Part shown: piece by piece, positions 7,666 to 56,846 of the stretch | How positions within the stretch are numbered: the first letter of the stretch is position 1 | Layout: each line of letters opens with the position of its first letter | DNA from: Eledone cirrhosa | Taxonomy: Eukaryota | Length of the DNA: 64,000 bases | Direction of reading: 5' to 3' | Assembly (NCBI GenBank): GCA_964016885.1 | Contig: CAXHJY010001140.1 | Span: 1-64,000 of the forward strand | Position numbers and translations under genes: made by a program | Notes under the pieces: model-generated | What the model was told of the DNA's origin: nothing | Seen by the model: only the letters and a program-made list of their open reading frames with translations | Databases searched by the model: none

Positions 7666-7818
7666 TAGGAACAATAAGACCCCGACGGCTGAGCTCAAGC
7701 CGTTTCGACGGCTAATTCTGGACTAACTTTTAGTCCAATTACCCACTCTACTACCCTAAGTATTGAGTACATTGGTGCGTTATGGTCCACCCAGTTCCTT
7801 ACCACATTTCCTTCGTTA
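7666..7818. mobile_element. PLE family C mini inverted pair in (TA)n
   Basis: Left arm (-) starts at ta|ggaac. Right arm (+) is internally deleted and ends at ccttcgtta. Matches 45768-45904. Confidence 0.85.
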
Positions 7819-8134
7819 TATATATATATATATATATATATATATATATATATATATATATATATATATATATATATATGTGTGTGTGTGTGTATATATA
7901 TATATATACATATATATATATATATATATATATATATATATATATATATATATATATATATATATATATATATATATATATATATATATATTTATACATA
8001 TATATATATATATATATATATATATATGTAAATATATATATATATATATATATATATATATATATATATATATATATATATATATATATATATATATATA
8101 TACATATATACATATATACATATATATGTTTTTA

Positions 8135-8350
8135 TACATTGGTGTAGGGCAGAACAAAGGAGAGGAACAAAATAAACACCTAGTCGCTGAGGAGGTCAAA
8201 TAATGTGTGACGAAATAGCGTTGAAAATATATAAACAACCGGCCGGTTATCAAACGTAACAAACTACTGGAAATGTATAATATGTTGAAGTGAAAGACAA
8301 CAGGTGCGTGTGTGTTTTTTATTGGCAACATGACGCTCACAAATTACAGC
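8135..8350 (+). mobile_element. PLE-like family B copy with degenerate hammerhead core
   Basis: gtagggcagaacaaaggagagg...tagtcgCTGAGGAggtcaaataatgtgtgacGAAA matches 3447-3540. Its 3' part matches the reverse complement of 2975-3040. Confidence 0.7.
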
Positions 8351-9249
8351 AAAATCTGTTTCAACACAAGTTTCGAGATGACAAATCATGCAATGCGCGT
8401 TCAAGCAGGGAAGTATATATATATATATATATATATATATATATATATATATATATATATATATAATTACAAGAAACGAAGTGAGCTGTGTAGTTACTGT
8501 AAACAAAGTTTAGGATGGTAATATGGACGAAACAAGAGAATAAATCTTTCATCAGCTGTAAACCGTAGGTCATAGATATTTCGGCGCTCAATACAGAACA
8601 TCAAAAACGAGGAAAATATTGAATAGAATAATTTATATATATATATTTAAAATAAGTTAAGATATCACCGGAGGTACTAAGTACCCCGGAAATATATGGG
8701 AAAACTGATCGGTAAAAGCAATTGGATTAGGTAAATATTTAAATTATATTTTTTAATTTATTTTAAAAAATTGTTTGAATCTTGCTTGCTCCGCTTATCT
8801 CAATATTATATATATATATATATATATATATATATATATATATATATATATATTTATATATATATACACATCCTTTCTTGAATTCTCTTTGCAAAATTTC
8901 AGGTAAAAGTACACCTTGATTTGGATCTCTACTCCTTTCACTTATTGTTCTGTATTTACTCTTTCGAGTAGACCTCTTTTGTTCCATATTCGTCGGCACA
9001 TGTAGAAAATGTTGGTCCTCAGAATTAACGAAACGAAGGTACCTGCTATTGATTGTGTCGTTCCAGTAACTCTCCTTAACAAGTATGTTCAAACGTGCCC
9101 TAGTGTGTTTTTTTAGCTAGATTTTTTACCTACAGATTGCTACTGCTCTGTATATATATATATATATATATATATATATATATATATATATATATATATA
9201 TATATATATATATATATATATATATATATATATATATATATATATATAT

Positions 9250-10172
9250 TAGGGTAAATATTGATGCAATTCAATTCAAGCATTCAACGTACTTTTTCCA
9301 CATAGGAGTGACGGAGTACTTTATGTCTGTTTTTTTATTCTGTTCCATGTGATGGAAATTATGACCGTGTAACAGATTGACAAATGCCTTGAACCATGTG
9401 GTTTGCCCTCCGTTCAAATGTACGGCACTGCCGTTCAATATGTGGATAGAGTAACTGTAACACTAGAATCCCTCCCAGAACTAATTACTTAAACATCTCT
9501 CTCCATATTATTTACTCACTTCAATCTATATTGTTACTCAATCCGAATTATCACTTGTATAAAAAAAAAAACATTTTTGAATTTAGAATTGTTTAATTCT
9601 TAATTGTTTAATTTATAATCTCTGATATTTGATCTAGGATTTTAACTTTTATTTCCAACTCTCACTCTTAACTTACAATGTAAAACCATAGTACCTAGAA
9701 TTAAGTTTATTTTCCCTTATGAGTTGATGGTCAGTCTTACTGTCAACGCTTAGTGAAAGGTAGTACTATGACCTATAAAAAATAACACCCTCCCATCCCC
9801 TCTGGCTTTCGGCTGACTGCCACAGTAATGATGGGTAGCAGTAAATTTGGCAGGGCATAGGTGGGCCACTGACAGAGAATTTCGTTGAAATCTGCGGTGC
9901 TAATGGTCAACTTCCTTCGGACATGCGCTTGCGCAGACCGGTGGGGGTGAATTGGTACTCACAAGGGAACGGATGAAAAACGAAAAATCACGAACTTCAT
10001 CCGGTCCCATGTCGATTCAATTTGGATTGCATCGGAAACAACCTTTTTATATAACAAGTTGTCTGATGATGACACGACACTCGCACACAGAACAGTGTGG
10101 CCAGTGACGTCACTGAAATATATATCACAGCATTATTATTAAAGGACTTGAACATCTGAAAGTACTTCGCTT
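9250..10172 (+). mobile_element. PLE-like 3' segment between (TA)n tracts, ending in a hammerhead
   Basis: Bounded by TA tracts with a hammerhead about 40 bp before the 3' end. Weak GIY-YIG C-terminal-like fragments (TLCL, NALN...FKC) at about 9315-9435. Confidence 0.5.
10058..10131 (+). ncRNA. Type I hammerhead ribozyme (near-intact)
   Basis: P1 gttgt/acagc; CTGATGA 10063-69; P2 tgac..cact..cacac / gtgtg..agtg..gtca with 2 extra nt; GAAA 10115-18; minimal P3 T-ATAT-A; ATC cleavage triplet ending 10126. Confidence 0.7.
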
Positions 10173-10199
10173 ATATATATATATATATATATATATATA

Positions 10200-10397
10200 T
10201 AACGAAGGACATGTGGTAAGGAACCAGGTGGACCATAACGCACCAAAGTACTCAATACTTAGGGTAGTAGAGTTGGTAATAGGAACGAGTAGGACCCCGA
10301 CGGCGGAGCTCATGCCGTTTCGACGGCTAATTCTGGAGTCCAGAATTAGCCGTCGAAACGGCATGAGCTCCGCCGTCGGGGTCCTACTCGTTCCTAT
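10200..10397. mobile_element. PLE family C mini inverted pair containing a perfect 59-bp palindrome (10279-10337 / 10339-10397)
   Basis: Arms are exact reverse complements with a 1-nt spacer. The left arm continues about 78 bp to the element terminus. Flanked by (TA)n. Confidence 0.93.
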
Positions 10398-53825: not shown

Positions 53826-53849
53826 AAAAGGGTGCTATGAAGAGATTCA

Positions 53850-54015
53850 CCCTTTACGTCCTGAGTTGAGTTCAAATTCCATGGAAATTAGATTTGCGTT
53901 CATAATTACGTGCTTTATAATATAAAGCACTAGTAAATACTGGGTTCGATTTAATCGACTTTCTTCTCCCCTTCAATTTGCTGGCATTGTGCCAACAGTA
54001 GAAACAATTATTATT
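53850..54015 (+). mobile_element. Degenerate SINE copy
   Basis: gagttcaaattcc B box and ttgtgccaacagtagaaacaattattatt 3' end. Confidence 0.65.
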
Positions 54016-55834
54016 AAAATAATTAGTATGCGGGTCGCTAATGTTGACGGGTAACTCGCTAGTATATTAATAATAATTCTAATAATATTCTAGCTATAAC
54101 AGACGTCTACACCTTTCTATTCATCGAAAACATAATAACTCTTTGTCGGCTTTGGGAGATTGCAGCCAAATGCAGTCATTAGCTTTCATGTTTTCCTCTA
54201 TCAGCTCCACTAAAATTAGCTTTCAGTTCAGAACTTTGTAACCATAAATTATTCCTGGAGCAGCTTTTATGCATTAATCTAATGTATTTTCAATATTTCC
54301 GTCTTTTTCTTTCATTTATGTATGTAGTATTATGTTCTGTTCATTAACATCTATGTATAAATGTATGTCTACGGTGTGTCCTAATTAATATTATTGAGGG
54401 TGTTATCAATCGTGATATTAATGATTTCTCTTAATGTCCCACTGCACAATTTCTAAAGTAAATTTCATGTCAATTCATCTACAGATTATGTATAAGGATT
54501 TTAAGTTCTCTATCGATCTTAGGTGTATAATTGCCGTCATCTATATCCAAAAACAGGAATCAAAGTGACAGTCATGTCTCTTACTGAAATGAGCAGATAA
54601 CTGCATAGTCATTATCTACGCAATAAACAAATGTTCATAAATTCTTTGCTTATAGGGTTGAACAAACTTTGTCAAGCTTTTGTCAAATATAATGATGTAT
54701 TTTTGTGTTGCTGAATTCCTAGCAAGCGAAATTATACTGCCTGAGAATCTTGCTGAAATTAATTTAGGCAGTATATTACATTTCTTGCTTGGACCATTCC
54801 AACAATTTCTACGCGTGGTGATTTAACAGGGAGATATGGAGTTTGAAATGCTGCACTCCACCCCAGGAGTAAATTTCATTAACCCTTTCTCTAATCAATT
54901 TCTAATGAAAGACGATGTTTACGATGATCAGGAAATCAAGAATAAGCAGGTATCTGTAGTTATTTATATCGTGTGGGCAGAGTTCTCAAACACTCTGTCC
55001 AGACGGTCTTATCATAAGCCTCAATGTGATTCGACTGAATCTTCAAGTGAAAACAACCCAGTTCATGGATGTTATCCAAACATTTTGCTCGTGTACTATC
55101 TCTGGGTCAACTGCTGGTTGATTGTGTCCGTCAAACCTGTCCAAAGTTTCGTTACTTAGACATATGACCACATGTCAACCGTGATTTTTCAATTTGTAGA
55201 AACGACATCTGTTCCTATAGCGACACCCGGGTATCCGTGCAATTTGGCCTGTATTAGTATTCTTATATCTTTGTCAAGTGAAGAATATCTAGAAGCTAAT
55301 CTAGAAACATTTCTATTAAACATGAGTGTTTCGTCAGTGATTGACAACTATTCCGATAGATAACTAGTGATGGATTTACATATACCCTACCATGGAATTT
55401 CTAACATGGGACAAGTATTAACCTGGGAAGCAAACAATCGAATGAGATATATGTATTCTGAACACGCGGCAAAAAATAACTCAGTGGCCCTCAAGTTGTT
55501 GGCTAAGCATCAAATAAGCAGCTCTTCAACGATGACACCATGATAATATTTAACTGTAAGCCATGATCTGGTGCTCAAAAGACTATACCATGAAATCCGT
55601 GGAAATAATAGTTCTGAAAATGAAAATGTAAAATAGCAGGGTGATATGGAAGGCATATGGATACATAATAGAGGACTAGTGGAATGTTCCAGTCCAATCC
55701 CAAATAAAATGTAAATATAAAAAACCAGACATAGTGATAGGGATTGAGAAAAGAAAGCATGCGCATTAGAGGAAAGCAGCTCTCAACATAATGCTCACGT
55801 TTTGCGAAAAGAAAAATATTTATGCTGAAATAAT

Positions 55835-56049
55835 GATTTCTAGTATAGGCACAAGGGCAATTTTTTGATGGGAGGGGAAAGTCGATTAAATGGACACCAG
55901 TATGTTACTGCTGCTTTATTTTATCGACCCCGTAAGGATGAACGGCAAAGCTGACCTCGGAGGGATTTGAACTCAGAACATAAAGAGCCATACCTCTCTG
56001 CTGCTAAGCATGGCGTCCGACCCTCTAACGATTCTGCCAATCCTCCAAC
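55835..56049 (-). mobile_element. tRNA-derived SINE with 18-bp TSD
   Basis: Same family as 30883; TSD tatttatgctgaaataat at 55817-55834 and 56050-56067. Confidence 0.92.
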
Positions 56050-56663
56050 TATTTATGCTGAAATAATAACGAAATGACAGATGTTCATCCTTGACTATAA
56101 CTTTAGATGTGTACATGATATACTTCAATGCTCGGTATAAATTATAAATTATACTGCCTCAGTATAAATTATATAAAAATCTCGGCTACACAGGAACAGA
56201 AGGAACAAGGCTAGTTAAGAAGGTCCAAATACGTTCATTAATGGAACTGTAGAAATATGAGAAACTTTTCAGAAATTCAGCATCTACACATGTATAGAAA
56301 GATAAGCTTGGACTGGTAGACATATGTAATTCAAAACAAATAAATTCACATACAAAAAACAATAACGTTGAACGTAGCTGTATTATAATAATTATAATAC
56401 AACATGCGCTATCGTATCTTCCTTGGATTATAAAGCATCAGTTGAAGTCATCATAAACTGAGACACACACCCACCCACACGCGAGAGAACTCATATGCAT
56501 ACATGTGCATATACGCATGTATTTATATATACACACACACACACACACACACACACACACACACATATTTATATATGTATGTATATATATACATATATAT
56601 GTATATATATATATATATTTATATATATATATATATATATATATATATATATATATATTTATA

Positions 56664-56846
56664 TAACGAAGGAAATGTGGTAAGGAACCAGGTGGACCAT
56701 AACGCACCAAAGTACTCAATACTTGAGGTAGTAGAGTGGGTAATAGGAATCAGTAAGACCCCGACAGCTGAGCTCAAGCCGTTTCGACGGAGAATTAGCC
56801 GTCGAAACGGCTTGAGCTCAGCTGTCGGGGGTCTTACTGGTTCCTA
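56664..56846. mobile_element. PLE family C mini inverted pair in (TA)n
   Basis: Left arm (-) runs from the terminus taacgaagg; right arm (+) stops at ttccta|ta. Confidence 0.9.

Follow-up and report, generated by a model that had tools for sequence, protein, structure and literature searches.

Inverted insertions and the element behind them

The window, the whole 64,000-nt stretch of Eledone cirrhosa DNA that was analysed, carries inverted insertions of several repeat families (Table 1), among them five insertions of one that we call family C, all confirmed at the places given in the first-pass annotation. In family C the internal site, I, lies 19 nt and the tail site, T, 96 nt downstream of the GUC (C at 45808), the tail between them being 77 nt, and both sites contain TAT, matching the target. 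Tracts of (TA)n flank the family C pairs on both sides with a median of 26 nt each, and their lengths on the I and T sides are alike (26 vs 26, p = 0.95 by a Wilcoxon test on the 57 pairs listed, 2 of which were afterwards excluded as separate insertions). In the long insertion the left (internal-site) arm jumps into a segment that starts where the tail arm stops. A search with the flank 9760–10170 for an empty site matched another repeat family and returned no allele.

Table 1. Features of the window, with positions counted from its first nucleotide; a slash marks the break within a motif.
Feature	Position	Strand	Details
Family G short foldback	366..544	+	internal end left, ~70-nt tail right
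Family F inverted insertion	2961..3630	+	short tail arm (~65-nt tail) left, long tail-less arm right
Solo family E arm	3662..3919	+	internal-site end
Family C foldback	7668..7816	+	internal-site arm left (inverted), tail arm right; right arm partly missing at centre
Further family, new to this analysis	9250..10171	+	tail remnant left; right arm ends ~10 nt short of internal site
Family C short foldback	10202..10394	-	tail arm left, internal-site arm right; centre at hot spot
Solo family C arm, 35 nt	11085..11119	-	internal-site end
Family B inverted insertion	21988..23873	+	internal end left, 127-nt tail right
Family B PLE endonuclease-like remnant	22555..22986		
Family E inverted insertion	42916..43457	+	internal end left, 40-nt tail right
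Long family C insertion	43479..45904	+	internal-site arm left, tail arm right
C-terminal GIY-YIG coding fragments	44199..44601	both	82% identical to the L066 ORF
Type I hammerhead-like motif	45718..45813	+	non-canonical core CTGATAA; predicted cut after 45808
TCATTT, initiator-like	45762..45767	+	5' extension limit of 160/182 arms; probable RNA 5' end
Internal start site I (CC/TAT)	45826..45828	+	+19 from GUC
Family C tail, 77 nt	45828..45904	+	site T (+96) is its end; copies that read through have it within the 5' UTR
Family C short foldback	56666..56844	-	tail arm left, internal-site arm right
Family D inverted insertion	63053..63738	+	internal end left, ~147-nt tail right

Site T had been taken for the one true terminus of the element. 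Four copies (L129, L131, L154 and L161) continue through it (CCTTCG/TTAT) into 5' UTR or ORF, and because they read past the supposed terminus, both junction sites are internal, lying in the pLTR–5' UTR part of the element. Nor does placing the internal site just past the ribozyme hold as a general rule: the 19 nt are specific to this family, and the start sites of PAc, a Poseidon element of Anolis carolinensis, are given as ~85–92 nt past the cut (Frangieh et al., 2024; PMC11167929).

The tails of ~127, ~147, ~40, ~65 and ~70 nt claimed for unrelated families in the window were found as described, and the rule of one tailed and one tail-less end is followed by three other families. The internal sites of families B and D are doublets, the break of the family E inverted insertion recurs at 3917, and the tail-less arm of family F has a CTGAAGA...GAAA hammerhead core at 3500. 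At other places family E forms tandem arrays of ~635-nt units.

On its motifs, family C is a Hydra-clade Penelope-like element (PLE), the Hydra clade being PLEs with a C-terminal endonuclease (EN+; Craig et al., 2021; PMC8557442). One copy (L066) has a 709-aa open stretch in which FDI, YRDD, VIY and YIG can be read, which suggests a single ORF with a telomerase-like RT and a GIY-YIG endonuclease; Pfam and PDB sequence searches gave no match for this ORF, and nothing for the two endonuclease fragments in the window or the family B remnant. Hydra-clade motifs in the stretch include RWR at residue 27 (RWK in the clade), DKT at 109 (the clade's change from DKG), CNCPDRSIC at 564 (CxCX5C), CNLC at 662 (CxxC) and CKH at 690 (CxH), while CCHH is absent as judged by eye without alignment to other clades. 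Family C also shares the clade's insertion into (TA)n, so that motifs and target both point to the Hydra clade. Direct 5' and 3' pLTRs occur in L129 and L131, and inverted arms in L066 and others. Position 8 of the hammerhead-like core is A in almost every copy (among the listed matches CTGAGAA 33, TTGAGAA 8, TTGATAA 5 and CTGATAA 1); at gathering scores Rfam matched nothing in the window, and 45600–45920 gave no hammerhead match at E up to 10.

Pairing of tailed and tail-less ends

The family C core has 23,267 exact matches genome-wide. The first 100 of them fall into the two sharp junction peaks that had been predicted, 50 having their end at +19 from GUC, the internal site, and 45 at +96, the tail site, with 5 elsewhere. 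From 63 listed head-to-head pairs we dropped two that span separate insertions (L074 and L110), and in all 61 genuine core-bearing pairs that remained the tail is on one outer arm: 55 are clean internal/tail pairs, 6 have one variant end and none joins like with like. Among the unpaired arms, 15/34 have a short inverted partner, which is of the opposite type in 14, has a variant end in 1 and is never alike. Short foldbacks genome-wide (n = 3,977) are mixed in 3,866 cases (97.2%, against 50% expected), with at most 43 tail-less/tail-less and at most 68 tail/tail; on inspection, 4/8 candidates of the former kind and 2/15 of the latter were truly so. The one-tail asymmetry thus holds genome-wide, far beyond chance, and the predicted one-of-each pairing with it. 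It is not strictly deterministic, as had been proposed, since like-with-like pairs make up ~1–3% and the internal sites of two families are double. Tail/tail pairs are present (L010, L028, L151 and L158), as are tail-less/tail-less pairs (L143, L145, L146 and L148, and L181 in family E).

The independent origin of the foldbacks, also claimed at first pass, is upheld by 49 distinct centres among the 53 short family C pairs and by 0/1,596 comparisons between pairs in which both flanks are shared. It is scarcely credible that the foldbacks descend by copying from a single MITE-like ancestor or from a few such units, or that they are sequencing foldback artefacts. Three centre sequences do recur two or three times, but the counts of centres and flanks already contradict this reading, several subfamilies are represented, the arms differ in substitutions and length, and unrelated families obey the same rule.

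Arm lengths and the centre of the foldbacks

The central junction had been described as varying; it has instead a strong hot spot, 53 of the 61 family C pairs folding within 24 nt upstream of GAAAC. Across 182 arms the 5' extension is bimodal: 160 stop at most 24 nt from GAAAC, 1 at 25–59 nt and 21 at 60 nt or more. The limit lies at TCATTT, which we take to be initiator-like from the consensus TCAKTY, and the hot spot is probably the RNA 5' end. A 3' splice site was rejected as its cause because many arms extend past the AG. Joints at the centre often have 1–4 nt of microhomology, T-runs have been added at the stop in L068, L070, L098 and L111, and no untemplated cap-derived G at the 5' limit was evident by eye in the centres printed.

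Arm lengths are coupled: the 61 pairs comprise 53 short/short, 8 long/long and 0 mixed, where ~14 mixed would be expected, and a single long/short pair (L136) is found in the tail-selected set. We consider it very unlikely that twin priming occurs but the hot spot reflects a polymerase block (RNA structure or bound protein, at hammerhead stem II) and not the RNA 5' end. A stall with occasional read-through would likewise leave few arms at 25–59 nt, and the region predicted to form stem II does have the hot spot on its 3' strand, but independent stalling would produce the mixed pairs that are lacking, the limit coincides with the initiator-like motif and with added T-runs, and other PLEs are reported to have a TSS within their pLTR (PMC8557442; PMC3846280).

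Either arm can be the longer one. In 54 short pairs the tail-less arm reaches further 5' in 13, the tailed arm in 20, and the two are within 2 nt in 21; in 15 long pairs the figures are 5, 9 and 1 tie, and the largest excess of a tail-less over a tailed arm is ~2.1 kb (L139). Since the tail-less arm reaches further in some pairs, copying of the tailed cDNA cannot account for it in every case, in agreement with the earlier proposal of two separately primed cDNAs; deletions at the palindrome centre after insertion could shorten either arm and mimic such an excess. These lengths bear on a snap-back route, close to the ideas of EN-mediated resolution and self-priming in the literature (PMC8557442; PMC3846280), by which a cDNA started at T would fold and copy itself, the hairpin then being resolved by the endonuclease at site I, which is TA-like, so that one side alone keeps the tail. 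Such a route directly predicts one-of-each ends, arm identity and coupled short arms, and the TAT in site I, as in the target, and the frequent microhomology at centres are in its favour. It could not, however, yield a tail-less arm that extends beyond the tailed one, as is the case in the 13/54 short and 5/15 long pairs above and in the family F copy in the window; solo arms ending at I also exist (6/34 unpaired arms), and both sites are RT start sites in vitro (PMC11167929). We therefore regard snap-back as quite improbable.

The two arms appear to share a template. By a 12-nt subfamily tag they differ by at most 1 nt in 46/55 pairs (shuffle mean 15.8, maximum 27); and the arms of L066 are 98.6% identical over 1,865 nt and at most 84.3% identical to the two other loci with enough length for comparison. 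Against this, among longer pairs arm–arm identity exceeds that to the best other locus in only 9/15 genuine pairs compared, and the subfamily concordance could also stem from two RNAs of one then-active locus. Twin priming on two RNAs, in which an asymmetric dimer would hold two same-locus transcripts and start at I on one and at T on the other, is unlikely. Two independent cDNAs would fit the longer tail-less arms, strand displacement would not be needed, arms of different subfamily type do occur in a few pairs (L087, L122 and L128), and the palindromic stem III loop TGAGCTCA could let two RNAs dimerise. Minimal hammerheads are known in dimeric form. Two RNAs would not by themselves yield 0/61 mixed-length pairs, however, and strict one-of-each site use would need an added asymmetry.

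Proposed two-ended priming and its relation to known elements

We suggest that twin priming on one RNA is favoured by the pair counts, the longer tail-less arms and the coupled arm lengths. On this reading, which we hold to be somewhat better than evenly probable, a doubly cut TA tract would supply two 3' ends, both serving as primers at two internal sites on a single uncleaved RNA, and the outcome would be the inverted (TA)n insertions of Hydra-clade PLEs with a tail on one arm. The RNA would be held by a protein dimer whose two protomers sit on site I and site T respectively, with 77 nt between them, and each 3' end of the cut tract would prime reverse transcription there. The two antisense cDNAs would be joined end to end via 0–4 nt of microhomology or a short untemplated filler and afterwards made double-stranded. 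The I/T cassette would be present twice in tandem transcripts: from the 5' copy both cDNAs would run off the RNA 5' end near TCATTT, giving the abundant ~200 bp foldbacks, and from the 3' copy long, unevenly truncated arms would result. Of the deterministic twin priming put forward in the first-pass annotation, the two peaks, the one-of-each pairs, independent origin and separate cDNAs stand, whereas strict determinism, the true terminus and the varying centre do not.

In L1 twin priming, a model credited to Ostertag and Kazazian, both target strands are said to prime cDNA on one RNA and so give an inversion. The second primer reportedly lands upstream at positions that vary, and there is little overlap between the two segments. 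In family C, by contrast, both starts are fixed and the arms overlap, the same region being copied twice; the likeness is limited to the use of both target ends.

PAc, from a different clade, has two internal RT start sites that bound its tail and lie, as in family C, at the pLTR–ORF junction near the 5' end; in vitro both strands of an AT-rich target are cut and extended, the template is unprocessed RNA and a dimer is predicted (PMC11167929). The family C sites share TAT with the target, whereas those of PAc are called non-homologous and AC-rich, and in the text of that paper available to us neither inverted pairs with one end of each kind nor short foldbacks from the RNA 5' end are connected with its two sites. 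Pen2a_Av and relatives from Adineta vaga (Arkhipova et al., 2013; PMC3846280) have inverted pLTRs, one of which may carry a 31-bp tail, with palindromes at their inverted junction and TATA and initiator-like motifs in the pLTR. The inverted pLTRs, one-sided tail, palindromes and initiator-like motif are as in family C. The rotifer elements differ in their low copy number and true TSDs, and the model put forward for them is self-priming on an antisense template. Within the Hydra clade as published, tails are 30–40 nt against 40–147 nt for families in the window, elements are <3 kb against ~3.5 kb for family C, and the hammerhead core is unlike the non-canonical one of family C; the available text ascribes the tail to endonuclease resolution, without pair counts (PMC8557442). 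Family E, with its non-coding tandem units and behaviour related to PLE ends, is like non-LTR retrozymes (bioRxiv 10.64898/2026.07.22.740005) in its arrays, the likeness not extending to a demonstrated complete type I hammerhead. The foldbacks of family C have an inverted layout where retrozyme units are in tandem, and they contain only the 3' half of the hammerhead-like motif.

Tails on one side, a pair of internal RT start sites and the extension of both strands had all been published (PMC8557442; PMC3846280; PMC11167929). Inverted pLTRs and tails had been set down as known at first pass, but the two tail-bounding start sites and both-strand cleavage and extension, not credited there to earlier work, had been shown in vitro in 2024 (PMC11167929). 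What is added here are the pairing counts, the tail-less arms that outreach tailed ones and the coupled arm lengths. Both PMC8557442 and PMC11167929 state as an open question how PLEs come by their inverted repeats and tails and make their second strand, and the counts turn a qualitative "tail often at one end" into constraints on any model (at least 97% one-of-each, either arm longer, length classes coupled) and lead directly to predictions for the in vitro system that already exists. Annotation is affected too, for such foldbacks would pass for MITEs and the tail end would be read as the terminus of the element. More tentatively, and with doubt slightly outweighing belief, we propose that priming at both ends on a single RNA is obligatory for PLE integration, each dimer half owning one fixed start site and the 5' cassette mass-producing the ~200 bp foldbacks. 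If so, every clean event would leave one tailed and one tail-less end; the foldbacks, thousands in the genome and MITE-like in look, would each be made afresh; and the inverted repeats, one-sided tail and second-strand priming of PLEs would be explained in one step.

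Element identity and the two internal ends

The window is AT-rich and carries many (TA)n tracts, and it comes from an animal assembly of 3.0 Gb. RWR, DKT, CxCX5C, CxxC and CxH motifs can be read in the family C protein. Such motifs, together with (TA)n insertion, define the Hydra clade of Penelope-like elements (PLEs; PMC8557442), and judged by them family C is a Hydra-clade PLE; Pfam and PDB searches with the protein gave no matches. A related endonuclease remnant belongs to family B in the window, and related ORF pieces were found at family B, D and E loci (for D and E, at the level of a shared locus). 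Other features are collected in the table below.

The first-pass annotation had placed five family C insertions and five other families in the window, with asymmetric ends in the paired insertions, and all were found as described. It had also claimed that family C meets (TA)n at only two positions, which the genome largely bears out. Relative to the GUC of a hammerhead-like motif, the internal site (I) is at +19 and the tail site (T) at +96. The 29-nt core upstream of both has 23,267 matches genome-wide; the first 100 in genome order, a selection made without regard to what follows downstream, comprise 50 that stop at I, 45 that stop at T and 5 that stop at other positions. Further TAT sites exist within the tail and just past T yet form no peaks, so target homology alone does not set the choice. 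The annotation's view of T as the one true terminus does not hold, however: L129 and L131 continue past CCTTCG|TTAT into a 5′ UTR followed by the ORF start, L154 and L161 read into the same 5′ UTR, and read-through copies occur in families B, E and F as well. It follows that both sites are internal and that the tail consists of the 77 nt separating them. This is the arrangement shown for PAc in vitro, where the tail is bounded by two internal reverse transcription start sites, both target strands are cut and extended, the template is unprocessed RNA and a dimer is predicted (PMC11167929). At L142, L144 and L147, arms have a TA run at site I before the tail resumes; copying may have restarted at this position, or the TA may have expanded.

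Additional features in the window and at other loci
Location	Feature	Observation
Window 9250-10171	Additional family	Similar pairing behaviour
Window 10172-10201; 43458-43478	TA tracts	Each shared by different PLE families
Window 11085-11119	Solo family C arm	Runs into short inverted copy of adjacent host flank (11120-11160; CCACACGC plus TA run), as if the cDNA end had switched onto target DNA
Window 25214-27939; 28012-30741	Tandem duplication, ~2.8 kb	100% identity except in simple repeats; either recent or an assembly artefact
Window 32000-37372	Non-LTR element	499-aa first ORF, AP endonuclease (PF03372), RVT_1, zf-RVT; interrupted by stop at 34843
Window 37617-41239	Second RTE-like non-LTR element	Frameshifted; RVT_1 match, C-terminal zinc-finger-like stretches
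Window 52467-53376	Decayed relative of 32000-37372 element	
L254:1363-3420	Open 713-aa PLE ORF, other family	52% identity to protein of L066, a locus with a family C ORF
L255:6967-7419	Tail arm adjoining a copy that runs from hot spot through tail to ORF start	Copy then begins again at the hot spot and stops at site I; may be a snapshot of partial-tandem formation via template jump

Pairing of unlike ends

A script found 63 head-to-head pairs of family C arms, of which two were dropped as joining separate insertions. The remaining 61 comprise 55 clean I/T pairs, 6 with one variant end and none joining like with like. Unpaired arms had a short inverted partner in 15 of 34 cases (14 of opposite type, one with a variant end). 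For one subfamily, a genome-wide pattern search for short foldbacks found 3,866 mixed, 43 tail-less/tail-less and 68 tail/tail matches, or 97.2% mixed against 50% expected; because only some inspected like-with-like matches were genuine (4 of 8 and 2 of 15), the true rate is probably nearer 99%. Genuine exceptions are L010, L028, L151, L158, L143, L145, L146 and L148. Both the one-of-each rule and its extension to unrelated families, as first proposed, are largely upheld: by eye, among the 30 best loci of each family and where both outer ends were in view, mixed pairs made up 9 of 11 in family E (one I/I, one variant), 12 of 14 in D (two variant) and 8 of 10 in B (two variant), the window copy being counted for E and D and excluded for B. 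The internal sites of B and D are doublets, and incidental copies of F and G are consistent with the rule. Three family E loci (L177, L187, L191) are retrozyme-like tandem arrays of ~635-nt non-coding units whose outer ends follow the two-site rule.

The insertions had been taken to be independent of any one ancestral foldback, and they are: the 53 short pairs have 49 distinct centres, and a comparison of 57 listed pairs turned up none with both flanks in common. Different PLE families share TA tracts in the window and at L073, L110 and L123, so insertions pile up in tracts flanking earlier ones.

Two likely cDNAs and their template

The centre, described initially as variable, has instead a strong hot spot, with 160 of 182 arm stops within 24 nt of GAAAC, 1 at 25–59 and 21 at 60 or more. 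Foldbacks of ~200 bp account for 53 of the 61 pairs, their arms ending just upstream of GAAAC. This limit coincides with TCATTT, which resembles an initiator, and T runs were added at some stops. Short foldbacks contain just the 3′ half of the hammerhead-like motif, the full form of which has a non-canonical core; since arms span the predicted cut site, the template was uncleaved.

The outward orientation of both arms means that an antisense strand is attached to either 3′ end of the target. Had the tail-less arm been copied by snap-back from the tailed cDNA, it would be contained in it, but it is the longer-reaching arm in 13 of 54 short pairs and in 5 of the 15 long ones (of these 15, six belonged to a tail-selected set). 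This makes two cDNAs likely, provided that later deletions are not frequent.

Subfamily tags agree between arms in 46 of 55 pairs, against 15.8 in shuffles, and the two arms of a pair fall in the same length class (short/short in 53 pairs, long/long in 8 and long/short in none, where ~14 of the last are expected); the tail-selected set holds one long/short pair, L136. The simplest reading of these sequences is that one RNA would be held by a dimer, each protomer taking one start site; short foldbacks would come from the 5′ copy of the cassette and long ones from its 3′ copy. Concordance between arms could also stem from two RNAs of a single active locus, and a few discordant pairs and the lack of an evident cap G count against this reading. 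In three of five three-segment insertions, a small sample considered post hoc, one cDNA picks up again no more than 140 nt from the point at which the other stops, and in the window copy at 43479 at exactly that point.

Known and added features

The element class, the one-sided tail, the pair of internal start sites and the extension of both strands were already known; PMC8557442 and PMC3846280 describe inverted pLTRs with a tail on one side, and a curation guide (PMC8969392) mentions them. Searches covering the main text of the more recent PLE literature listed no pair-type count or single-RNA twin-priming model. The additions are quantitative: the pairing rate, the arm asymmetry, the 5′ hot spot, the coupling of arm lengths and longer tails in Hydra-like families.
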